Source: an uncultured delta proteobacterium (GTDB taxonomy: Bacteria; Myxococcota; Myxococcia; Myxococcales; Myxococcaceae). From it: a DNA stretch of 64,000 bases. The notes beneath the pieces are model-generated. The model was not told the origin of the DNA and searched no databases. It was given only the letters and a program-made list of their open reading frames with translations. The DNA lies in NCBI GenBank assembly GCA_963771175.1, contig CAVYSY010000033.1, positions 96,001-160,000 on the forward strand, written 5' to 3'. Positions 5,422 through 44,379 of this stretch are shown here, one piece after another (position 1 is the stretch's first letter; every line of letters begins with the position of its first letter). The position numbers and the translations under genes were made by a program.

Positions 5422-7080
5422 ATGTCACCTCCCTCGCCACTCACACGACGTCCCAGAGCGACCGCCTTTAGCATTGAGGATCTGCTGGACCACGTTCGAC
5501 AGGGGAGCATCCGCATCCCTGAGTTCCAGCGGGCTCTTAAATGGAAGGCCCGGGACGTCCATGAGTTACTGGACAGTGTCTACCGAGGCTATCCCATCGG
5601 AACCCTGCTCTTCTGGCAGCACGAGGCGCCCGCAGCCCACATCCAAATCGGCCCAGTTAAATTGGACGCCCCCAAAAAGGCCCAAGCGCTATGGGTCGTG
5701 GATGGCCAACAACGCATTACCGCACTCACTGGGGTGCTCCTTCACCCATCGCTCAATGGTGAAGGTGGCTACGATGACTTCGGACTCTACTTCGACCTAG
5801 AGAAGGAGGATTTCGTTCGGCCTACCCGCCGGGAGCGGCCGCCCGCCCATTGGCTGCCCATGAATGTAGTAGCGGACAGCGAGTTACTGCTCGGCTGGTT
5901 GGATCGCTATTCCGCTCGGGCAGAGCACCCCGAGCACACAAGGACGGCCATCAAACTCGGCAAGATGATCAGGGAGTATCAGGTACCGGCGTATATCGTC
6001 GAAGCCGATGCGGAGGAAACCCTTCGCATCATCTTCGAGCGACTGAACTCCACGGGCAAGGCACTTTCCAAGGCGGATGTGTTCCAATCGCTCCATGGAG
6101 GCTGGAGCCAAGAGCAGCCTTCGGATCTTCGCTCCATGTCCCGCAGCTTGGAGGAGATGGAATTTGGCACCATCGAAGAGGAATGGCTGCTCAAGGCCGT
6201 TCTCGCCATCAAAGGTCTCGACATCACCAGGGACTTTCGATCTCAACTCAAGGAAGGCCATGATTTGCCAGGTGCGCTCCGCCAAACGGAACGCGCGCTG
6301 CGCGATACAATCGTCTTCCTCAAACGGGATGCAGGAATTCCCCGCATCGAACTCTTGCCGTACAAGCTCCCCCTCGTCATCCTGGCGCGCTTCTTCCAGC
6401 TCAATCCCGAGCCTTCCGCACGCTCACGTGAGTTGCTTGCACGATGGCTCTGGCGTGGTGCCATCACCACCTTTCATAGGGGAGAGAGCATTCCCGCAGT
6501 CCGCAAGAGCCTGGCTGTCATCAGGCGGAATGAGGATGAGTCGATACAGGCATTGCTCGCCGAACTTCCCGAAGCACCCACCAGGGAACTGAACCTGCGC
6601 GACTACAATTTCCGTACTGCGGAAACCAAGCTGCAGGTCAACGCGATGCTCGCACTGCAACCGCGAGATCTCCAATCCGGCGAGCTCCTGGATGTCCCCG
6701 CTATCATTGGAACGCAAGGAGCTGCCGCACTACGCCTCATCATCACATCACCCCCGCGCCTGCGCCCTGATGAGGGTTCAGCCCGGCTCAAGAGATTGAT
6801 GCAGGGGCTCGCCAATCGGATGTTCCACCCGGCGATGCAGGAGCAGTCGTTGCTCACCGCGCTCGAGCACTCTCTCCATCCAGAGGTGCTCAACAGCCAT
6901 GGCATTCCCTTGCCTGCGTTCACGGCGCTCCAGCAAGGCGACAGGCTGGGATTTCTGACCCTCCGACAAAGATTCCTGGAGCGCCACGTAGACACCTTCC
7001 TGGACTTGAAAGCACGTTGGCTGGAATCGGTTCGCAGGCCGCTCCAGTCTCTGCTCATCCTCGACGACGAGGAGGCATGA
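5422..7080 (+). CDS. DUF262 (GmrSD/SspE-type ParB-like NTPase) domain protein
   Basis: IPEFQR, LLDSVYRGYPIGTLLFW, VVDGQQRITAL, IFERLNSTGKAL motifs; 552 aa. Confidence 0.9.
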   Translation: MSPPSPLTRRPRATAFSIEDLLDHVRQGSIRIPEFQRALKWKARDVHELLDSVYRGYPIGTLLFWQHEAPAAHIQIGPVKLDAPKKAQALWVVDGQQRITALTGVLLHPSLNGEGGYDDFGLYFDLEKEDFVRPTRRERPPAHWLPMNVVADSELLLGWLDRYSARAEHPEHTRTAIKLGKMIREYQVPAYIVEADAEETLRIIFERLNSTGKALSKADVFQSLHGGWSQEQPSDLRSMSRSLEEMEFGTIEEEWLLKAVLAIKGLDITRDFRSQLKEGHDLPGALRQTERALRDTIVFLKRDAGIPRIELLPYKLPLVILARFFQLNPEPSARSRELLARWLWRGAITTFHRGESIPAVRKSLAVIRRNEDESIQALLAELPEAPTRELNLRDYNFRTAETKLQVNAMLALQPRDLQSGELLDVPAIIGTQGAAALRLIITSPPRLRPDEGSARLKRLMQGLANRMFHPAMQEQSLLTALEHSLHPEVLNSHGIPLPAFTALQQGDRLGFLTLRQRFLERHVDTFLDLKARWLESVRRPLQSLLILDDEEA

Positions 7081-7081
7081 A

Positions 7082-8310
7082 ATGCAACTCCTGAGCAGAG
7101 AGGTTGGCATCCTCGATGTCCGGCTGGGCGACGTCCACGTTGGAACGCTGAATCTACTGGAAGATGAATATACGGAGTTCGTCATCTCCGAGGAGTACCG
7201 TCAGCGGTATCCGCGGCCCATTCTCGGACAGGCTTTTGAGGATGACCTCTCCCGGCGGCGTTCGAGCCGAATTCGCTTATTGCCATTCTTCTCGAACCTT
7301 CTCCCCAGAGGGACCCCTGCGAGAGCTCATCGCGGGGAAATTGGGCGTGCACCCTCAGAGGGAGTTTTTCCTCATCGCGCGGCTTGGTGAGGATCTTCCC
7401 GGTGCGGTCATCATTACCCCGACTGGTGTACTGAGAGGAGACGCCTCCGAGCCCCTGGTAGGACGTGAGGAAGAACCTGCGCCCCTGCGGGAACAACTCC
7501 GCTTCTCTCTGGCTGGCGTGCAACTCAAGTTCTCCATGTTGCGCCGGGATCGCGGCATGACGCTGCCCACGAGTGGTCGTGGTGGCGATTGGATTGTCAA
7601 GCTACCGGACAATCGCTACGACCTCGTACCAGAGAACGAATTCTCGATGATGAGCTGGGCACACGCCGCTGGCATCGACGTGCCCGAATTCCATCTGGAA
7701 AGGGTCACCGACCTCGAGGGCCTTCCCGAGGGCGTGATGCTACGTGAGGGAATGGCATTCGCCATCCGCCGCTTTGACCGCCCAGAGCCCGGCCGGCGTG
7801 TCCATATGGAGGACATGGCGCAGGTGCTCGGGCTCTACTCGGACGAGAAATACAAGAAATACAATTATGAGACGACTGCGAACGTGTTGCTCAACGTGGC
7901 CGGACTGGACACACTCCACGAGTTCCTTCGCCGGCTTGTCTTCATCATCGCCATTGGCAACGGGGATGCCCACCACAAGAATTGGTCCCTGCTTTACCCA
8001 GACGGCATCCACGCGACACTCTCGCCAGCATACGACCTTGGTCTCAACCATCCAGTACATGCCCAAGGAGACCCTGGCACTGAATCTCGCTCGCTCCAAA
8101 AGATTTGAGGATGTATCCCTTGAAGCGTTCGAACGGCTTGCGCGCAAACTGGGGCTGAGCGGCGACGAAGTACTTCCGATCGTGAGAGCAGCCGTGGAAG
8201 CCACGCTCGATTCCTGGGTCAGCCTACGCGGCGAACTCCCCATACCCGAGAGCTACAAACAACGTATTGAGGAGCACTGGAAGAAGGTGCCACTGCTCGG
8301 GATGCAGTAG
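7082..8310 (+). CDS. hipA: HipA-family Ser/Thr kinase toxin (N-terminal couple_hipA + HipA_C), two +1 frameshifts (~7305, ~8040)
   Basis: Joined frames give PFFSNLLPEG, GEDLPGAV, SLAGVQLK, WIVKLP, ENE, RRFDR, HMEDMAQ, GNGDAHHKN, LSPAYDL. Confidence 0.9.
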
Positions 8311-34443: not shown

Positions 34444-34965
34444 ATGAGCTTCACCATCGCCATCGGCTCGACGAACCCGGCCAAGACGACAGCGGCGCGA
34501 GCCATCTGTGAGCGGGCCTTCCCCGGCTGCACCGTGGTGCCAGTCGACGTGCCCAGCGGAGTCCCCGAGCAACCCATCGGCGCCCAGCAGACCTCGACGG
34601 GAGCGCGCAACCGGGCCCGGGCGGCGCTGGCGGCCGTTGCGGGGGCGCGGATGGGCATGGGGTTGGAGGGGGGCGTGGACCCGGACGGCAGCCTCATCAA
34701 CTGCGTGGCCGTGGTGGAGGCCGAGGGCCGGGAGAACCTGACCTGGGGTGTGCGCTTCCCCCTCCCGCCGAGCGTCGTCGCCCGGGTGCTGAAGGGCGAG
34801 GAGCTCAGCGTGGTCATGGACCAGGTCACCGGCCGGACCGAGAGCAAGAAGCAGCTCGGAGCCGTGGGCATCCTCACCAACGGCCTCTTCACGCGCGCCG
34901 AGATGTGGCAGGGCCCGCTCGCCTGCGCGCTGATGCCCTTCCTGCACCCAGGGCTCTACCCCTAA
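34444..34965 (+). CDS. yjjX: Inosine/xanthosine triphosphatase (DUF84/YjjX)
   Basis: GSTNPAK, SGVPEQP, GARNRA, GLEGG, GAVGILT. Confidence 0.88.
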   Translation: MSFTIAIGSTNPAKTTAARAICERAFPGCTVVPVDVPSGVPEQPIGAQQTSTGARNRARAALAAVAGARMGMGLEGGVDPDGSLINCVAVVEAEGRENLTWGVRFPLPPSVVARVLKGEELSVVMDQVTGRTESKKQLGAVGILTNGLFTRAEMWQGPLACALMPFLHPGLYP

Positions 34966-36366: not shown

Positions 36367-36882
36367 GACGAACCCGGCCAAGACGACAGCGGTGCGAGCC
36401 ATCTGTGAGCGGGCCTTCCCCGGCTGCACCGTGGTGCCAATCGACGTCCGAGCGGAGTCCCCGAGCAACCCATCGGCTCCGAGCAGACCTCGACGGGAGC
36501 GCGCAACCGGGCGCGGGCGGCGCTGGCGGCCGTTGCGGGGGCGCGGATGGGCATGGGGTTGGAGGGGGGCGTGGACCCGGACGGCAGCCTCATCAACTGC
36601 GTGGTCGTGGTGGAGGCCGGGGGCCAGGAGAACCTGACCTGGGGTGTGCGCTTCCCCCTCCCCCCGAGCGTCGTCGCCCGGGTGCTGAAGGGCGAGGAGC
36701 TGGGCCGGGTCATGGACCAGGTCTCCGGCCGGACCGAGAGCAAGAAGCAGCTCGGAGCCGTGGGCATCCTCACCAACGGCATCTTCACGCGCGCCGAGAT
36801 GTGGCAGGGCCCGCTCGCCTGCGCGCTGATGCCCTTCCTGCACCCGGGGCTCTACCCCGCGCACCGCTCCGAATCCGTTTGA
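36367..36882 (+). pseudogene. yjjX: 5'-truncated diverged second copy of yjjX
   Basis: 36367-36858 aligns by eye to 34470-34962 with about 18 differences including one indel; first 9 codons missing. Confidence 0.9.
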
Positions 36883-36886
36883 GGCC

Positions 36887-37222
36887 TCACCCCTCCAACC
36901 GGTGCTCGATGCGAATGAGCCGGACGCCCTTCGGCGTGCGCATGAGCGTGTCCCACCAGTCCGCCCCGTCATACCAATAGCGGATCTGCACCCCGAGCAC
37001 CCTCCCCTCCCGGAGCGCCTCCACGGCCTCGGCGAGCGGGACGGACTGCTCGGAGGCCATCGCCAGGGCTCCGCCCTTGAGCAGCACCTCCTTCACCACG
37101 GTGCAGCGCTGGATGTCCTGGAGGAGCTGCTCCAGCGTGTCCGAGTCGAGGATGGCGTCCTGCAACTGGGGAAGCGGGGTGTTCTCGGGAGCGGCATTCC
37201 CGAGGCGGAGAGCTGCTGTCAT
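36887..37222 (-). CDS. Hypothetical protein, last gene of nap operon
   Basis: 111 aa; ATGA overlap with upstream ferredoxin; GVQIRYWYDGADWWDTL. Confidence 0.75.
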   Translation of the reverse strand: MTAALRLGNAAPENTPLPQLQDAILDSDTLEQLLQDIQRCTVVKEVLLKGGALAMASEQSVPLAEAVEALREGRVLGVQIRYWYDGADWWDTLMRTPKGVRLIRIEHRLEG

Positions 37223-37800
37223 GAGACGGCGACCTGCTGGTGGGAGGGAAGGAACTCGAAGGCGTTGAGCGGGGCCGGGCACACCTGGACGCAGACGCCA
37301 CAGCCGTTGCACCGCTCCTCCACCACGCGGGGGCGCCCCAGCTCGATGACGATGGCGTTCTCGACGGGGCAGCGCTCGGAGCAGGTGCTGCAGAACGAGC
37401 CCTGCCAGGCGAGGCAGAGCTGGGGACGCACGCGAACGGTCATCCCCGGGACGGGAGCACCCATCGGAGCGCCGGGATTCGCGGAGGACGGACCCCCAGC
37501 GGGAGGCGCGAGCGGAGCCATTCCGATCCGGCTGACGCCGTCCTGGGGGACGACGAGCCCCTCTCGCAGGGAGAAGACCGGGATGCTGTTTCCAGTGGCC
37601 TCGCCCGCCTGCGAACGGGAGGAATAGAACGCCTCGAGGGAGAAGCCACCGCCCGCTGCGGGAGCAGGCGCGGGTGCGGGCTCGGACACAACGGGCGCGG
37701 GCGCGGGAGCACGAGTGGGCTCCGGCGAAGGCGCGGGCTCCTCCTTCTTGCGAAGGAACCCGAAGAGCGCCCGGCGGCTGATGGCGGCCCGCGAGCTCAC
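37219..37800 (-). CDS. 4Fe-4S ferredoxin-type protein (NapF/NapG-like)
   Basis: SRRALFGFL N-terminus; CLAWQGSFCSTCSERCP and CNGCGVCVQVCP; GTGA overlap with napB. Confidence 0.8.
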   Translation of the reverse strand: MSSRAAISRRALFGFLRKKEEPAPSPEPTRAPAPAPVVSEPAPAPAPAAGGGFSLEAFYSSRSQAGEATGNSIPVFSLREGLVVPQDGVSRIGMAPLAPPAGGPSSANPGAPMGAPVPGMTVRVRPQLCLAWQGSFCSTCSERCPVENAIVIELGRPRVVEERCNGCGVCVQVCPAPLNAFEFLPSHQQVAVS

Positions 37801-38594
37801 GGCTTCGCCTCCGTCGCCATGCCCGCCAGACCCGGCTCCCCTGCCCCACCGACGCGCTGGTCGAGCCGCGCCGAGGAACCATGGCACTGCTGGCAGTTCT
37901 GCCGCTCCGGGTGCGAGGTGCGCAGCCCGGGGAGCCCCTTGGGCCCGTGGCAGCTCGCGCAATCGGTCCGCATGTGCGTCGAGTGAGGCATGGTCGGCGG
38001 TGCGCCCGGCCACGCCCGCGCACCATTCCCGGCCGAGGCCAGCCCGACGAAGCCGTTGCCCGGCATGTCCTTGTACGGGGCCAGCGGGCGAGGCGAATCC
38101 CCCACCACATGGCACTGCGTGCAGCTCTGGTACGGCTCGTGGCTGATCTTCGGAGCCACCCGGTTGCCCAGCTTCATCCCCTCGCCGTGGCAGGCGAGAC
38201 AGCCGGGGACCTCGCGCTGGTCGATGTCGTGCGGAATGGTCGGCGGCGCCCCGTCATACGCGCGGTGGGTCTTCCGCTGGGCCACGGCCTGCGCGCGCTG
38301 CTCGGAGGTGGCCACCGGCAGGGGCTTCACCGGCAACTCCTCCTCCGACAGCGAGGCAATGGCCCCCTCGTACATCCGCGCGTTGTCTCCACGCCGCGCC
38401 TCGCGCAGCTCGCCGTAGCTCAGAGCACGCTCCGCCCGTTGCGCATGCGGATCCGAAGCCACCGGTCGCTCGGGCATCTCCGGCGCACGGACCCCCGCGA
38501 AGTACCCGGTGGCCGCGAGCGCCACCGCCACGGCGGCGCCCACGTGGAGCCAGCGAGCCGGGAGGCCACTCCCCTGTTCGCCCTCGGGGTTCAT
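37797..38594 (-). CDS. napB: NapB-type cytochrome c subunit, internally duplicated (4 CxxCH)
   Basis: [22 protein letters not shown] and [22 protein letters not shown]. Confidence 0.82.
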
Positions 38595-41044
38595 CCCTGC
38601 TTCTCCGCGACGAGCTCACGCCGGCGCACCCGGGCCGCGCACTTCTTGTAGTCCGGCTGCTTGGAGAACGGGTCGTGCGCGTCGAGCGTGAGCCCGTTGA
38701 TGAGCAGCCGCTCGTCGAAGAACGGGACGAACAGCGAGCCCGGCGGCGGGCTCGCCGCGACCGTCGATCCACACCGGCAGCTCGAGCTTCCCGCGCCGCG
38801 TCTCGAGCGTCACCGAGTTCGCCGTTGCCGCACGCCGAGCCGCCGCGCGTCGTCGCGGTTCATCTCGACGTAGGCCTGCGGCATCGCGCGCTGGAGCTGC
38901 GGGAATGCGCATCGTCATCGTGCCGGTGTGCCAGTGCTCGAGCACGCGGCCGGTGCAGAGCCAGAAGGGGATACTCGGCGTCGGGCGACTCGGGCGGCGG
39001 CTCGTAGGGGCTGGAACCAGATCTGCGCGCGGTCGTCCTTGGTGGTCGAGTGGTAGAACTGGATGTCGCGTGCCCTTCTTCACGTACGGGTCGTCGAAGC
39101 CGGAGAAGCGGAACCGCGTCTCGCGCCAGCGTGCCGTCCGGCTGCTGCACCACCGGCCAGCGCAGGCCGCGCGCCTTCACGTACTCCGCGTAGGGCGCGA
39201 GGTCCTTGTGCTTGATGCGGCGTGAACTTGCGGTACTCCTCGAAGAGGTGCTCGTCGACGTTGACGTCGTAGTAGTGGGCGAAGTCCCAGATGGGCACCG
39301 GCTTGCCGTCCTTGCCCTTCAGCGTCGAAGAGGAACCGGCCGTCCTTGTCCTTCATCCCCGCGATGCCCGAGCTCGAAGAGCCGGTGCGCGACGGCGATG
39401 ATCTGCCAGCAGTCGTCGCGCGCCTCGCCCGGGCGGCTCGACCATCTTGAACCACTGCTGCGTGCGGCGCTCGGAGTTGCCGAACATGCCGTTCTTCTCG
39501 ACCCACATGCGCCGACGGCAGGACGAGATCGGCCGATGCGCGTCGTCGCGGTCGGGTAGACGTCGGAGACGATGAGGAACTTGTCCGCGAGCTTGCGGCT
39601 CGGGATCGAACAGCTCGTGCAGTTGGGCAGCGACTGGCCGGGGTTGGTGACCTGCACCCAGATCGTGTCGATGTCGCCGCCCTGGTCCGTGGGCGTGGAG
39701 AAGCGCTTCCACATCTCGACGGTGTGGTAGCCGGGCTTGGCGTTGATGCGGCCCGCGGGGACGTTCCAGATCTCCTCGGCCTCCTCGCGGTGCTCGGCGT
39801 TGGCGACCACGCAGGCCGCCGGGGAGCGCGTGGGCGAGCGTGCCGACCTCGCGCACCGTGCCGCACGCGGAGGGCTGGCCGGTGAGGCTGGTCGGCGCGT
39901 CGCCCGGCTTGCCGAAGTGCCCGCTGAGCAGGTGGACGCCGTGGACGAGGTTGTTGATCGCCGTGCCGCGCGTGTGCTGGTTCATGCCCATGCACCACAG
40001 GCTGGTGATGCGCAGGTCGCGCCGGCCGAACAGCTCGGCGAGCATCGCGGATGTCCTTCGCCGGCGACGCCCGAGAGCTGCTCCACCTTCTCCGGGCGTG
40101 TACTCGGCGAGCAGCCTTCTTGTACTCGTCGAAGGTGATGGCCTTGCCCTCGAGCGTCGGCGGCTCGTCGGCGCGCGCGGAAGGCGCAGTGCTTCTCGAC
40201 GAAGTCCTTGTCGTAGGTGCCGTTCTCGACGCAGCAGGTGCGCGATGCCGCAGGCGATCGCGAGGTCGCGCGTGCGGCTTGAAGCGCGAGCACGTGATCG
40301 GCAGAACCCGCTGGTGCGCGTGCGGCGCGTGCCGATGTCGATGAGGGTGACCTTCTCGCCGCGCGAGCGCCGGTCGATGACGCGCGAGAACAGCACCGGG
40401 TGCATCTCGGCGGGGTTGTTGCCCCAGAGTGATGAGCACGTCGCACGTGTCGAGGTCGTCGTAGCAGCCGGCCGGCTCGTCGACGCCGTAGGTGGCGAGG
40501 AAGCCCGTCACCGCCGAGGACATGCAGAGCCGCGCGTTGGCGTCGATCTGGTTGGTCGCCGAGCCCGCCCTTGATGAACTTGTTGGCGGCGTAGCCCTCG
40601 GGGATCGTCCACTGGCCGCTGCCGTAGATGGCGAAGCCCGCGGGGTTCTTCATGCACGCGCTTGGCGATGATGTCGATCGCCTCGTCCCACGAGATGGGC
40701 TCGAGCTTGCCGTTCTTGCGCAGGAGCGGCGTGGTGCAGGCGATCCTCGCCGTAGAGCGCGAGGCCGACGTGGTAGCCCTTCACGCAGAGCAGGCCCTTG
40801 TTCACCTCGGCCTTCTGATCGCCCGCGATCGCGACGACCTTGCCGTCCTGCACGCCGACCTGGACGTGGCAGCCGGTGCCGCAGAACCGGCACGGCGCCT
40901 TGTTCCACGTGCACGCCGTCGCCGTGACGGGCGGCGGCCGACGGCGTCCGCGGCGGCCTCGTCCTGGCCGTAGCGCGAGCCGGCGCGGCCGCGACCGTCG
41001 CCGCCGCCATCGCCGAGCCGCTTGAGGAAGTCCCGGCGATCCAT
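38591..41044 (-). CDS. napA: Periplasmic nitrate reductase catalytic subunit, many frameshifts
   Basis: Joined frames give MDRRDFLK (Tat), [79 protein letters not shown]. Confidence 0.9.
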
Positions 41045-41049
41045 CAGCC

Positions 41050-41303
41050 TCAGCCCTCCTCGTGCTCTGAGAAGTCGATCCATCACCACGTCCACGAAGC
41101 GCACGCCGGCGGCTCCGTCAGCGCGACTCGCGCGAGCGCCTCGCCCTCCTGCGAGCGTCGCCGTCTCGGTCGACCACCGGCAGCCAGCGCTCCTCGCGCG
41201 TCGCCGCCCAGCGTGATGCGCGGGTCGCGAGCAGCTCCGAGGGCGCGCGAGCCTCAGCGCGGGTCACAGCGTCGAGGGTGACGACCAGGCCGCTGATCGG
41301 CAT
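41050..41303 (-). CDS. napD: NapD-like chaperone, frameshifted
   Basis: [10 protein letters not shown] start, WLPVV, RFVDVV near end; size and position directly upstream of napA. Confidence 0.65.
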
Positions 41304-41337
41304 GCGGGTCCGCCCGTCGCAGCACGCCCGCCCATGG

Positions 41338-41353
41338 AGCAAGAGGCGGACCA
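41338..41353 (-). promoter_or_regulatory. sigma54 (-24/-12) promoter for napDAB operon
   Basis: Minus strand TGGTCCGCCTCTTGCT matches TGGCACG-N4-TTGC(A/T); ~35 bp upstream of napD ATG. Confidence 0.65.
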
Positions 41354-41464
41354 CTCCGACGCGCCACCGGCATCCGGCACGCGTGACGCGCAAGTCTGCG
41401 CGCGACCGTGCATCGGCGATGCGCGGCATCGCCGCCTCGAGGCGTCGCGAGGCAGACGCGCGCG

Positions 41465-41480
41465 TGGCACGGACCCTGCT
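41465..41480 (+). promoter_or_regulatory. sigma54 (-24/-12) promoter for cytochrome c-ferredoxin-NrfD operon
   Basis: TGGCACGGACCCTGCT; ~35 bp upstream of ATG at 41516. Confidence 0.65.
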
Positions 41481-41515
41481 TTGCGCGATCCCCGTGGCGA
41501 GCCACCTCTCGATTC

Positions 41516-42125
41516 ATGCGCCCGTCGCTCGTCGCCGTCGCTGCTCGCCGCTCGGCGGATGCCGGCAGGACCAACCCGCGCGCTTCGCAGCCGGCCCCCG
41601 GGAGCGCCGACTGGCGACGACGGTCGATCCACGCAGCCGGCGAAGCTCACGCTCGGTCGAGACCGACCAGAAGGACGCGCTCGGCCGGCCCATCCGCGTC
41701 GCGTGCGTCACGCTGCCACTCGCTGCGCGACGCCGAAGCCCGCTGCCCCGACGGCCCGAGCGAACTGAAGGAGTTCCACCAGGGCCTCCGTTCAGCCACG
41801 GCGACGCTCGCCTGCGCGCGTGCCACGTCACCAGGCCGCGCAGCGCACGCACGCTCCACCTCGCCGACGGGCGAGCCGCTGCCGATGACGCGAGGCGATG
41901 ACGCTGTGCGCGCAGTGCCACGGGCCGCAGTTCCGCGACTACCAGCACGGCGCGCACGGCGGCATGAACGGCCACTGGGATCTCTCGCGAGGACGACCGC
42001 CGCGCAACCACTGCGTCGACTGCCACGATCCGCACGCGCCGAAGTTCGCGGCCGTCGCATCCGGTGCTGCCGCCGCGCGATCGCGGCCGCCGACGGCGAG
42101 CCGCCGAGCTCGGAGCGCACCATGA
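41516..42125 (+). CDS. Multiheme (probably tetraheme) cytochrome c, likely lipoprotein; frameshifted
   Basis: LGGC lipobox-like; intact CAQCH and CVDCH plus two indel-broken motifs (CVT-CH, CA--CH). Confidence 0.7.
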
Positions 42126-43046
42126 GTGACAAGGTCGACCGCCGCGCCGTGACGCTCAAGGTGCTCGGCGGCCACGCTCGGCGCCGGCGCCTTCGCGCTA
42201 CGCGATGGCGCCGCTCACGCGAGTGGACGCAGGACCTGACGCGTCGATGAGTTCCTCCAGAAGCACTACAAGGAGCTGACGCCGCGACGAGCTGGCGACG
42301 GTCCTCGCGCGACCTCGAGGCCGAGACGCGAAGACGAAGTACGGCCGCGACGTGACCATCCAGCGACCTGCCGCCGCGACGGAGGGCGTCGAGTTCGGCT
42401 ACGCGCTCAACCTGAGCGTCTGCATCGGCTGCCGCAAGTGCGCCGAGGCCTGCCACATCGAGAACAACCACGATCGCGCGCACCAACAACTCGTACATCC
42501 GCGTGCTCGAGATGGAGCAGGGCAGCTTCGACCTGGAGCACGGCAACGCGCACTACGACCACGCCGGTGCCCGCGCCGGGCAAGTACTACATGCCGGTGC
42601 AGTGCCAGCAGTGCGACAACGCGCCGTGCGTGAAGGTCTGCCCGGTCGCAGGCGACCTGGAAGGAGCCGGACGGCATCGTCGTCGTCGACTACAACTGGT
42701 GCATCGGCTGCCGCTACTGCGAGGCCGCGTGCCCGTACCACGCGCGGCGCTTCAACTGGACGAAGCCGGAGATCCCCGCCGACGAGATCAACCCCGACCA
42801 GGGCTACCTCTCGAACCGCATCCGCCCGCAGGGCGTGGTCGAGAAGTGCACCTTCTGCCTGCACCGCACGCGCGAGGGCCGGCTGCCCGGCGTGCCTCGA
42901 GGCGTGCCCGACCGGCGCGCGCGTGTTCGGCAACCTGCTCGATCCGAACAGCGAGATCCGCTGGGTGCTCGAGAACAAGCGCGTCTTCGTCCTCAAGGAG
43001 GAGCTCGGGACGCAGCCCGCGCTTCTTCTACTTCTTCGACAAGTGA
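42122..43046 (+). CDS. Tat-exported 4x[4Fe-4S] protein (DsrO/NrfC/PsrB family), frameshifted
   Basis: DRRAV Tat-like; CIGCRKCAEAC, CQQCDNAPCVKVCP, CIGCRYCEAACPY, VEKCTFC..ACLEACPTGAR. Confidence 0.88.
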
Positions 43047-44379
43047 GCCGGTCGCCATCGCACCGAGCATGCTCGCCGCAGTCACACGCGTCGAGCTACC
43101 CGCGCTTCCTGCGGCGGCTCGCTGCTGGCGCGCATCGACGGGAGCTGGCGCTTCTACGCCGTGGATGACGCGTGCTCACGGCGATCGCCCTGGTCGGGCG
43201 CCAACGCCTGGGCGCACCAGGTCGCGCGACGGCATGGCGCGTCACCGGCGATGACGCGACCACGTCTCGTGGGGGCTCTACATCGCCAACTTCACCTTCG
43301 GCGTCGGGCTCGCGGCCGGCGCGGTGATGATGGTCATCCCCGCCTACCTCTACGACGACCACGAGATGCACGACGTGGTGATCATCGGCGAGCTGCTCGC
43401 CGATCGCCGCGATCGTCATGTGCCTCGCTGTTCGTCGTGGTCGACATGGGCCGCCCCGATCGCTTCTGGCACCTCATGCCCGGCGATCGGCCGGTTCAAC
43501 TGGCCGATCTCGATGCTCACCTGGGACGTGATCGTGCTCAACGGCTATCTGCTCCTCAACCTGCACATCTGCGGCTACCTCGCTCTACATGCGCTTCCTC
43601 GGGCGCAAGCCCGAGCAAGCGCTGGTACCTGCCGTTCGTCTTCCTCTCGATCGTCTGGGCGATCTCGATCCACACCGTGACGGCGTTCCTCTACAGCGGG
43701 CTCGGCGGCCGGCCGTTCTGGAACTCGGCGCTGCTCGCGCCGCGGTTCATCGCGTCGGCGTTCGTCACCGGCCCCGCGTTCGTCATCGTGCTGCTGCAGG
43801 TCATCCGCCGCGTCACGGCGCTTCCGCGTCGGCGACGGGCCCGATCGCGCACGCTGACGTCGGTGCTCCGCGTGACGGTGCTCGCTCAACCTGTTCATGC
43901 TGGGCTCGGAGCTGTTCACCGCGCTTCTACACGGGCGGCGCGCACGCCACGCGCGGCGCGCTACCTGTTCTTCGGCTCGCACGGGCAGCACGCGCTCGTG
44001 CCGTGGATCTGGACGGCGATCGCGCTCAACGTCGCCTCGGCGGTCCTGCGTGCATCTGCCCGCGAGCCGCGCGCGACAGCTGCGGCTGCTCGACCTGGCG
44101 TGCGCGCTGCGCGTTCGCCGGCGTGTGGATCGAGAAGGGCATGGGCCTCATCATCCCCGGCTTCGTCCCGAGCACGCTGCACGAGGTCGTCGAGTACGTG
44201 CCCGAGCGCTCACCGAGTGGAAGGTGACCGCGGGCATCTGGGCCTTCGGGCTGATGGTGCTGACGGTCGCGGTGAAGGTCGCGCTGCCGGTGCTGAGTGG
44301 GCAGCTCGCCGCCTCGCATGCCGAGCACGCACCGGCCGGACATGGAGACACGGCCCCTGAATCAAAGCAGGCCGCGTAG
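43043..44379 (+). CDS. NrfD/PsrC-family membrane quinol-interacting subunit (DsrP-like), frameshifted; start approximate
   Basis: SWGLYIANFTF, DMGRPDRFWHL, SMLTWDVIVL, SIHTVTAFLYSG, RPFWNSALLAPRF, WIEKGMGLIIPGF. Confidence 0.85.

Follow-up and report, generated by a model that had tools for sequence, protein, structure and literature searches.

Analysis of a 64-kb stretch of DNA from an uncultured member of the Myxococcaceae (positions 96,001 to 160,000 of contig CAVYSY010000033.1, assembly GCA_963771175.1; the whole stretch is called the window here) led to a cluster of genes which combines a periplasmic nitrate reductase (Nap) with a module of the NrfD type. The window is part of an assembly of 9.8 Mb in 58 contigs, with 70% G+C and a completeness of 81.7%. 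The minus strand carries an open reading frame (ORF) in the position of napD, followed by napA and by genes for a four-haem cytochrome built as a double NapB, for a ferredoxin similar to NapF and for a protein of unknown family, called Unk. Divergent from these, the plus strand carries the genes for a four-haem c-type cytochrome, a DsrO-like iron-sulfur (FeS) protein and a DsrP-like membrane protein of the NrfD family, which together are called the triad. Gene boundaries were mapped from the intact orthologue cluster in a complete genome of the same genus (L004), in which the cluster consists of eight clean ORFs, and transferred to the window they span exactly positions 36887-44379. A Pfam profile search with 88 stop-to-stop fragments from the region of 35.9-45.5 kb matched the families Molybdop_Fe4S4, Molybdopterin and Molydop_binding over several frames on the minus strand, together with NapB and Fer4, and multihaem cytochrome, Fer4_11 and NrfD families on the plus strand, again over several frames. 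The Pfam matches and the mapping from L004 confirmed all genes which a first-pass annotation, made from the sequence and its reading frames, had named at this place. Relatives of the locus were collected with an alignment of nine close DsrP-like sequences, which was searched over one genome per species and gave 554 relatives; the best 80 of these, with 60-95% identity, are referred to below as the related loci and were compared by tblastn with the L004 proteins.

The napA gene (38591-41044, minus strand) corresponds to an L004 orthologue of 806 amino acids with a twin-arginine translocation (Tat) signal and matches to PF10518, PF04879, PF00384 and PF01568. The orthologue aligns over its full length to the solved NapA proteins 3ML1, 1OGY and 2NYA (E about 1e-205, about 50% identity), and its Cys-containing motif lines up with that of 3ML1 and 1OGY, at a place where a frameshift interrupts the copy in the window. 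The conserved Cys of this motif is presumably the Mo ligand. Directly upstream of napA is a small ORF (41050-41317, minus strand; 86 amino acids in relatives) which is conserved in the relatives and in most related loci. It gave no Pfam or NCBIfam match, and E. coli NapD found a counterpart in 0 of the 80 related loci; the ORF is a putative napD by position and size alone.

The next gene (37797-38594, minus strand, intact) encodes a NapB-like cytochrome of 270 amino acids in L004, which scores 35.9 bits against the Pfam model NapB (PF03892, cut-off 25.1). The protein consists of an N-terminal hydrophobic anchor and two tandem dihaem repeats of the NapB type, with four CxxCH motifs in total. 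All four motifs were found in each of the 63 related loci where the alignment covered at least 60% of the protein, and both repeats are conserved in an alignment of 27 sequences. Among solved structures, NapB 3ML1_B gave a weak match (E 0.009). The short ferredoxin that follows (37219-37800, minus strand, intact; about 173 amino acids in L004) belongs to the Fer4 families and has 8 Cys residues in two [4Fe-4S] motifs in the window. Similar short forms with 8 Cys occur in Archangium and in Verrucomicrobiota, and forms with 16 Cys in other phyla. By blastp the ferredoxin is 35% identical to residues 129-207 of E. coli NapG and 34% identical to residues 102-164 of E. coli NapF. In its N-terminus a twin-arginine motif precedes a polar stretch; E. 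coli NapF is alike in this, whereas NapG has a hydrophobic region at this position. Judged from these sequence features the protein is probably a cytoplasmic maturation factor which stands outside the electron path, and the ferredoxin of the first-pass annotation, though present, is better described as NapF-like.

The last gene of the nap operon encodes Unk (36887-37222, minus strand, intact), a protein of 111 amino acids without a signal peptide. It gave no Pfam or NCBIfam match, and in the Atlas its clusters hold hypothetical proteins only. Unk is conserved across phyla; in 58 of the 80 related loci, tblastn placed it beside the genes for the NapB-like protein, for NapA and for the triad. 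An AF2 model (pLDDT 88.3) folds as a small alpha/beta sandwich; the best Foldseek match had an E of 0.066, and the best VIA matches were to unrelated small alpha/beta proteins with a Z of 7.0, which is in the commonplace range.

On the plus strand, the cytochrome gene (41494-42129) encodes a protein of 206 amino acids in L004. The orthologue matches Cytochrome_C7 and Paired_CXXCH, and in Archangium it has a lipoprotein-like signal. Four CxxCH motifs were present in 73 of 73 loci and are invariant in an alignment of 30 sequences. The second gene (42122-43046; 301 amino acids in L004) encodes a Tat-dependent FeS protein with a match to Fer4_11 and 16 Cys residues in four [4Fe-4S] motifs, similar to DsrO, NrfC and PsrB; its nearest solved chains are PsrB 2VPW_B (E 2e-38) and ArrB 6CZ7_B. 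The third gene (43050-44379; 422 amino acids in relatives) encodes a membrane protein with about ten hydrophobic segments and a match to Pfam NrfD, for which the nearest solved chain is ActC 6F0K_C (E 3.5e-10). The likeness to DsrO and DsrP proposed in the first-pass annotation was borne out for DsrP by the NCBI model NF045798, with a score of 425 bits (cut-off 350); the score against the DsrO model NF045797 was 183 bits and so a little below the cut-off of 200.

A sequence of the sigma-54 type with -24 and -12 elements is found at 41465-41480 (plus strand), 14 nt upstream of the position to which the start of the cytochrome gene was mapped. The pattern TGGCAC-N5-YTGCW has this single match in the 64 kb of the window, with 0.14 expected, and it is kept in 10 of 10 sequences of the genus, in a spacer which is otherwise variable. 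In one other genome (G060) the triad is followed by genes for a histidine kinase and a sigma-54 activator. The motif is a predicted promoter.

Conservation of the linkage between Nap and the triad

When 40 relatives were searched at the DNA level, the 7.5-kb stretch was matched near full length, with 82-87% identity, in 14 of the 17 genomes of the same genus. Among the remaining ones, G007 (73% complete) and G010 gave weak matches only, and G012 holds the cluster in pieces. In G012 (C108:7667-11366) the dsrP-like gene and the distal nap genes are kept and napA is present as fragments only, which looks like genuine decay in that species.

The 80 related loci are distributed over Myxococcota, Planctomycetota and Verrucomicrobiota, with one locus each from Methylomirabilota and Sumerlaeia; the Myxococcota among them include Archangium, Sorangium (with strain So ce56), Polyangiaceae, Sandaracinaceae and Lujinxingia. 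A NapA with at least 60% identity is encoded beside the triad in 73 of these loci. In all seven others the contig ends no more than 3.5 kb from the triad, on one side or on both, and these loci are undecidable. All six core genes are present in 58 of the 80 loci. Two gene orders were found in the 73 loci with NapA: the divergent one of the window in 63, and in 10 a co-directional one, with the order cytochrome, dsrO-like, dsrP-like, napD-like, napA, napB-like, ferredoxin, Unk. Four of the co-directional loci have a NapD-like match, and in these the genes for the DsrP-like and NapD-like proteins abut, from a small overlap to a distance of 18 nt.

The same picture was obtained starting from NapA. 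In an even sample of 301 genomes of Myxococcota, eight encode a NapA with at least 70% identity, and in all eight the DsrP-like gene is located on the same contig at a distance of no more than 3.5 kb. Six of them are Myxococcaceae and two belong to other families, one of these being a genome of 47% G+C with the co-directional order. In 251 genomes of Planctomycetota, the module is found within 3.5 kb in 20 of the 22 that have a NapA with at least 58% identity; of the two exceptions, one has the genes on different contigs and one has no match. In a quick phylogenetic tree, all 31 triad-linked NapA proteins form one clade on a long stem (SH-aLRT 100), and E. coli NapA lies outside it together with four NapA-type proteins of Myxococcota from other contexts; the NapA proteins outside the clade are linked to NapGH/C, to Rieske and cytochrome b proteins or to nrfHA. 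Linkage of the triad to Nap is strongly conserved across several phyla. Co-occurrence of napA with the triad in other genomes, which the first-pass annotation had singled out as a check on its proposal that the triad feeds Nap, thus gave a clearly positive outcome.

The established electron donors of Nap were searched for at the locus and in the genomes. No match to the NapC/NirT family (PF03264) was found among the 88 fragments of the cluster region, and NapH (TIGR02163) gave nothing over the cut-off in this genome and four complete relatives, in accordance with the earlier remark that napC and napH are missing from the cluster. By tblastn, E. coli NapH had a match in 0 of the 80 related loci and E. 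coli NapC in one, at 27% identity and at a distance of 6 kb. The genes of the NapC/NirT family that do occur in this genome and the four complete relatives are nrfH genes (161 bits, cut-off 134), which lie beside nrfA-like genes and far from nap; in the genome of the window the distance exceeds 200 kb, or the genes stand on a different contig. A check of the genome for napC, nrfH and nrfA, as suggested at first pass, thus found genes of the NapC/NrfH family, but far from nap. NarG and NirK gave nothing over the cut-off in the same five genomes; nirS, nor and nos were outside this search. The dsrA model TIGR02064 had a match in 0 of five genomes of the genus.

Frameshifts in the deposited sequence

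As deposited, five of the eight genes of the cluster are broken. Because tblastn with intact orthologues reads through frames and hides frameshifts, the window was aligned with nine relatives at the DNA level. This revealed 100 indel runs with a length that is not a multiple of three: 35 in napA, 9 in the NapD-position ORF, 20 in the cytochrome gene, 14 in the dsrO-like gene and 22 in the dsrP-like gene. None occur in the window genes for the NapB-like protein, the ferredoxin and Unk. The nine relatives have no such indels in napA, the NapD-position ORF, the cytochrome gene and the dsrO-like gene, and in the dsrP-like gene one of them (L005) has two that compensate each other. The damaged patch extends from about 38.6 to about 44.4 kb, and its boundary near 38.6 kb is sharp, with clean genes of the same operon adjoining. 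Within the patch 134 letters are inserted and 36 are missing. The inserted letters are mostly single bases outside homopolymers, and 62 of them are G and 49 are C.

Substitutions point in the same direction. Counted at sites that are invariant in all relatives, private substitutions amount to 56-131 per kb in the five broken genes versus 7.7 per kb in the clean gene for the NapB-like protein. In the relatives L002, L005 and L009 they amount to 0-28 per kb and fall mostly on third codon positions; those of the window fall on all three codon positions and are dominated by C/G swaps (61 of 106 in napA). Contigs from four public sequencing runs (X1, X17, X2 and X3, from three studies) are without the inserted letter at every one of the 12 places listed, with 119 further differences beyond this listing. 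Compared with the window, the contigs from X1 show a divergence of about 1% in its clean flanks (4 letters in 323 and 5 in 751) and of about 10% inside the patch (60 letters and 9 gaps in 641). Similar damage is found elsewhere in the assembly. Long ORFs were taken from 20 places of a complete relative, and 87 of them have a close orthologue in this assembly; 28 of the 87 are split across frames here, 6 are partial and the other 53 are intact. In addition, a second copy of nrfA on the same contig is in four pieces (C33:358637-359641). A metric for frame switches based on G+C at third codon positions (GC3) flags the patch, as well as 500 of 4888 two-kb bins of the genome versus 8 of 200 in a clean control.

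The C/G bias of the insertions, the sharp boundary, the near-identical contigs without insertions and the same kind of damage throughout the genome all argue that the frameshifts are errors left uncorrected in an assembly of low and patchy quality, and that the genes have not decayed. This is a strong inference and not a proof, because none of the four runs is shown to be the source strain. Two further points speak for caution: antisense shadow frames may be among the 87 ORFs used as queries, and the frame-switch metric, which genome-wide is only 2.5-fold above the control, is weak when taken alone. That napD, napA and the triad are instead a decaying pseudogene cluster in this strain could be argued from the indels as they stand in the deposited sequence, from the missing link between the runs and the source strain, and from G012, a member of the same genus which holds only pieces of the cluster. 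Bacterial pseudogenes usually shrink. The patch is marked by a strong bias towards insertions without large deletions, its private substitutions are unusually rich in C/G swaps, and genes of the same operon next to it are clean; with the environmental contigs and the damage in the other sampled genes added, genuine decay is very unlikely. The frameshifts noted at first pass are real in the deposited sequence, whereas a dead cluster, which that annotation had named as a possible outcome, is unlikely in view of the relatives, the run contigs and the genome-wide damage. In the organism the nap-triad cluster is very probably intact. Since the assembly has uncorrected patches, apparent pseudogenes in this genome are not to be trusted.

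Around the cluster, the gene after the dsrP-like gene encodes a DUF2378 protein on the opposite strand, and the neighbours are of the TIGR02265/DUF2378 type, as would be expected in Myxococcota. On the other side, a segment of 493 bp from a DUF84 NTPase gene occurs twice (34470-34962 and 36367-36858) with 96.3% identity between the copies. Frameshifts break the copy adjoining the nap operon, and the second copy is intact; the duplication is either real or an assembly artefact, and the contig of a relative is arranged differently near this repeat (joint 36858 to 36000). At a distance from the cluster, positions 6001-8000 of the window have a G+C content of 0.59 versus about 0.70; no coding frame is stable there, the frame switches 15 times, and GC3 reaches 0.71 at most.

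Comparison with known Nap systems and quinol modules

With the classical Nap system, as encoded by E. coli napFDAGHBC, the cluster shares a Tat-dependent NapA with its Cys motif, a NapB-type partner, a NapF-like ferredoxin and an ORF in the position of napD. It differs in having no NapC or NapH in the cluster, nor in 79 to 80 of the 80 related loci, in the doubling of NapB to a membrane-anchored protein with four haems, in the additional Unk protein and in the presence of an NrfD-type quinol module. The ferredoxin is similar to the C-terminal part of NapG, but its N-terminus is without the hydrophobic stretch. To our knowledge, reviews of Nap list NapC and NapGH only as electron donors.

Another arrangement of Nap without NapC is that of Caldithrix abyssi, where a different quinol-oxidising complex is part of the nap cluster (PMC5317091, as far as its available text goes). 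There the module is of the Rieske/cytochrome b type and not of the NrfD type, and the NapA belongs to a different clade. This layout is shared by one of the Myxococcota genomes compared here (G120; L037, C1:4735000-4754000), in which genes for a Rieske protein, a cytochrome b, a multihaem cytochrome of 572 amino acids and NapA stand in one array. A further arrangement occurs in a complete Anaeromyxobacter-like genome (G198; L034, G198:C1:1042000-1061000), where a Tat-dependent NapA-like protein is encoded in an operon nrfH-nrfA-x-napA, with x encoding an unknown protein of 164 amino acids; this operon represents a different Nap wiring. Separately, a 2.7-Mb genome of the same family as the window (G092; L040, C57) has a divergent NapA-like gene (40% identity) with moeA, mobA, a PF09655 'nitrate reductase-associated' gene and a cytochrome gene.

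The closest described counterpart of the triad itself is the 'DsrOhPh-tetrahaem' locus, in which homologues of DsrO and DsrP are likewise encoded together with a four-haem cytochrome, at a distance from dsrMK (PMC13047784). According to the accessible text of that 2026 paper, the locus is found in cable bacteria, in some Desulfobulbales and in Gamma- and Betaproteobacteria, and also in organisms without sulfur metabolism. Its authors speculate about electron transfer from quinol to the periplasm and leave the function open; in the text available to us nap is not linked to it. Similarly, what could be seen of a paper on cable bacteria (PMC10926707) does not mention nap in connection with the module. 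The cable-bacterial loci add a small TMH1 gene, a difference from the present cluster, and the likeness is one of architecture and haem counts (judged from the accessible part of the paper).

DsrJOP of the DsrMKJOP complex is similar in that the DsrP model is passed and the DsrO model nearly so, and in the DsrP quinol site that lies beside a DsrO cluster, as seen in the part of the structural report that was accessible (bioRxiv 10.64898/2026.08.25.746951). Unlike DsrMKJOP, the locus is without DsrM and DsrK, the genus genomes searched have no dsrA, and the four-haem cytochrome is not DsrJ; moreover, electrons would here stay in the periplasm instead of crossing to the cytoplasmic DsrK. By analogy, the triad may thus resemble DsrOP in its working, outside any Dsr pathway. 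E. coli NrfBCD and alternative complex III (ActABC) share with the triad a cofactor-free quinol site of the NrfD type, an FeS subunit, a multihaem cytochrome and a periplasmic acceptor. The scores against NrfB (NF008659, 25 bits versus a cut-off of 184) and NrfC (TIGR03149, 119.8 versus 377.6) are far below the cut-offs, and the cytochrome has four haems versus the pentahaem NrfB. From alternative complex III the triad differs by the lack of the molybdopterin-like domain of ActB, the FeS protein having 301 amino acids and Fer4 domains only, and of ActDEF.

Two papers on planctomycetes mention comparable gene neighbourhoods in one sentence each. In Lacipirellula parvula PX69, NapA is stated to be encoded in one operon with FeS and NrfD-like subunits (PMC6995999), an operon that may be of the same type. 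The metagenome-assembled genomes OFTM8 and OFTM33 are described as having a cluster of multihaem, 4Fe4S and NrfD genes next to nap (PMC10732223), and their contigs correspond to our loci L063 and L084, which have the full gene set. In their accessible text, neither paper contains a survey, a claim that NapC or NapGH is replaced, or a test. A description of the module as a donor of Nap was not found in the literature searched, beyond such passing mentions of its adjacency to nap. The system has thus been glimpsed before.

Proposed electron supply to Nap and its implications

The analysis shows the identities of the genes, the conservation of their linkage and the error-like character of the frameshifts. 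The electron path proposed below is, like expression and physiology, predicted from homology and gene context. Menaquinol would be oxidised in the DsrP-like subunit near the periplasmic face of the membrane, by analogy with DsrMKJOP, where cryo-electron microscopy placed menadiol in DsrP on the periplasmic side at less than 8 Å from a DsrO cluster (bioRxiv 10.64898/2026.08.25.746951, accessible part). Electrons would then pass through the FeS chain of the DsrO-like protein to the four-haem cytochrome, from there to the double NapB and finally to NapA, where nitrate would be reduced to nitrite. The DsrP-like module would thereby substitute for NapC or NapGH. In the cytoplasm, the maturation of NapA may be served by NapD and the NapF-like ferredoxin, and perhaps by Unk as well, and nitrite could be reduced further to ammonium by NrfHA encoded elsewhere in the genome. 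We consider it probable that the locus encodes a complete Nap system of a distinct type, fed by a DsrOP-like triad that replaces NapC and NapGH, and that its frameshifts are errors. As judged from the sequence comparisons, the linked triad is a well-supported candidate for a third way of supplying electrons to Nap.

A number of observations weigh against this view, most of them from more distant copies of the triad. In a sister family, 39 of 39 sampled genomes carry the module at about 47% identity and 10 have a NapA-like gene; in the seven genomes compared by eye the two are not adjacent. In G198 (L033, G198:C1:1630000-1649000) the triad is followed by a gene for a monohaem cytochrome c of the cbb3 type and is not near nap. 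In G121 (L039, C15:479000-497000) it stands beside genes for multihaem cytochromes of 784 and 970 amino acids and for a protein with an EB_dh domain, which suggests a link to extracellular electron transfer. Among Planctomycetota, 25 of 47 genomes with the module are without an adjacent NapA match, seven of these at 55-61% identity. The tree that separates the linked NapA proteins came from a quick search with five outgroups only. An experiment tying the module to Nap was not found in the literature for any organism, and nine new myxobacterial strains, including an Archangium that may or may not have the cluster, were negative in the API test for nitrate reduction (PMC10435759, accessible text). 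Because distant copies occur without Nap, the triad is a modular unit for electron transfer from quinol to the periplasm, one subfamily of which travels with one NapA clade; taken as a family, it is not specific to Nap. One may go further and regard every triad as a general oxidoreductase between quinol and periplasmic cytochromes, whose adjacency to nap reflects co-regulation or co-transfer while Nap itself may use other donors. The distant copies just described fit this explanation, as does the function left open for the homologous locus in the cable bacteria (PMC13047784, accessible text). Within the subfamily of at least 60% identity, however, adjacency is near universal and has survived a change of gene order with the genes abutting, the linked NapA proteins form a clade of their own, and the related loci have no NapH and a single weak match to the NapC family. 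We therefore regard the general explanation as rather unlikely for the linked triads.

Other explanations concern the individual partners. The NrfH proteins are over the equivalog cut-off, occur in one to two copies per genome and could in principle donate electrons to Nap, which counts against a supply by the triad; Nap would then be served by this NapC/NirT-type cytochrome encoded with nrfA and the triad by another acceptor. The G198 operon, in which a NapA-like gene stands together with nrfH and nrfA, is a precedent for such a pairing. Its NapA belongs to a different clade, though, the nrfHA genes of the window's genome are remote from nap, and it is the triad that is linked to nap, so that this route appears improbable. 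It could also be asked if the NapA-type enzymes of the clade act on a substrate other than nitrate. The orthologue scores just below the equivalog cut-offs for NapA (868.1 versus 904 for NF010055 and 848.6 versus 930.55 for TIGR01706), another point that does not favour our interpretation, and the clade is on a long stem; the scores would fit a divergent NapA clade. Against a different substrate stand the full-length alignment at about 50% identity to solved enzymes of the NapAB type, the conserved Cys motif and the NapB-type partner. Lacipirellula parvula PX69, whose NapA is described as encoded with FeS and NrfD subunits in an operon that may be of the present type, was positive for nitrate reduction in the API test (PMC6995999, accessible text). 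A change of substrate is, in our judgement, highly improbable.

The preferred scheme of a triad-fed Nap can be extended, as was raised at first pass, to a gain in energy. In such an extension the module would be the sole dedicated quinol dehydrogenase of a separate class of Nap and, unlike NapC, would couple quinol oxidation to proton translocation, making periplasmic nitrate reduction energy-conserving. In DsrMKJOP, a proton path connects the quinol site in DsrP with the periplasm (bioRxiv 10.64898/2026.08.25.746951, accessible part). By analogy the step would be electroneutral unless the subunit also pumps, because the release of protons and their uptake would both take place on one side of the membrane; energy conservation by the module is not favoured, and the extended scheme as a whole seems doubtful at best. 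If true, it would define a Nap class marked by a NapA clade of its own, by the double NapB and by a novel accessory protein, and used by nrfA-bearing soil guilds of Myxococcota, Planctomycetota and Verrucomicrobiota that are regarded as 'aerobic'.

Without the step of energy conservation, a third donor of the NrfD type would, if confirmed, change the reading of nap clusters in metagenomes from soil and sediment. The module of a DsrOP homologue plus a tetrahaem cytochrome, for which the papers of 2026 name no function, would in addition acquire its first role in physiology. The carriers among Myxococcota, Planctomycetota and Verrucomicrobiota are groups that are named as ammonifiers in nrfA amplicon surveys; the accessible text of these surveys names Archangium, Polyangium, Sorangium, Planctomycetota and Opitutaceae (PMC11219630; bioRxiv 10.1101/2024.11.04.621907). 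With Nap and NrfHA encoded in one genome, the gene set predicts a reduction of nitrate to nitrite and on to ammonium within a genus that is considered to be aerobic.

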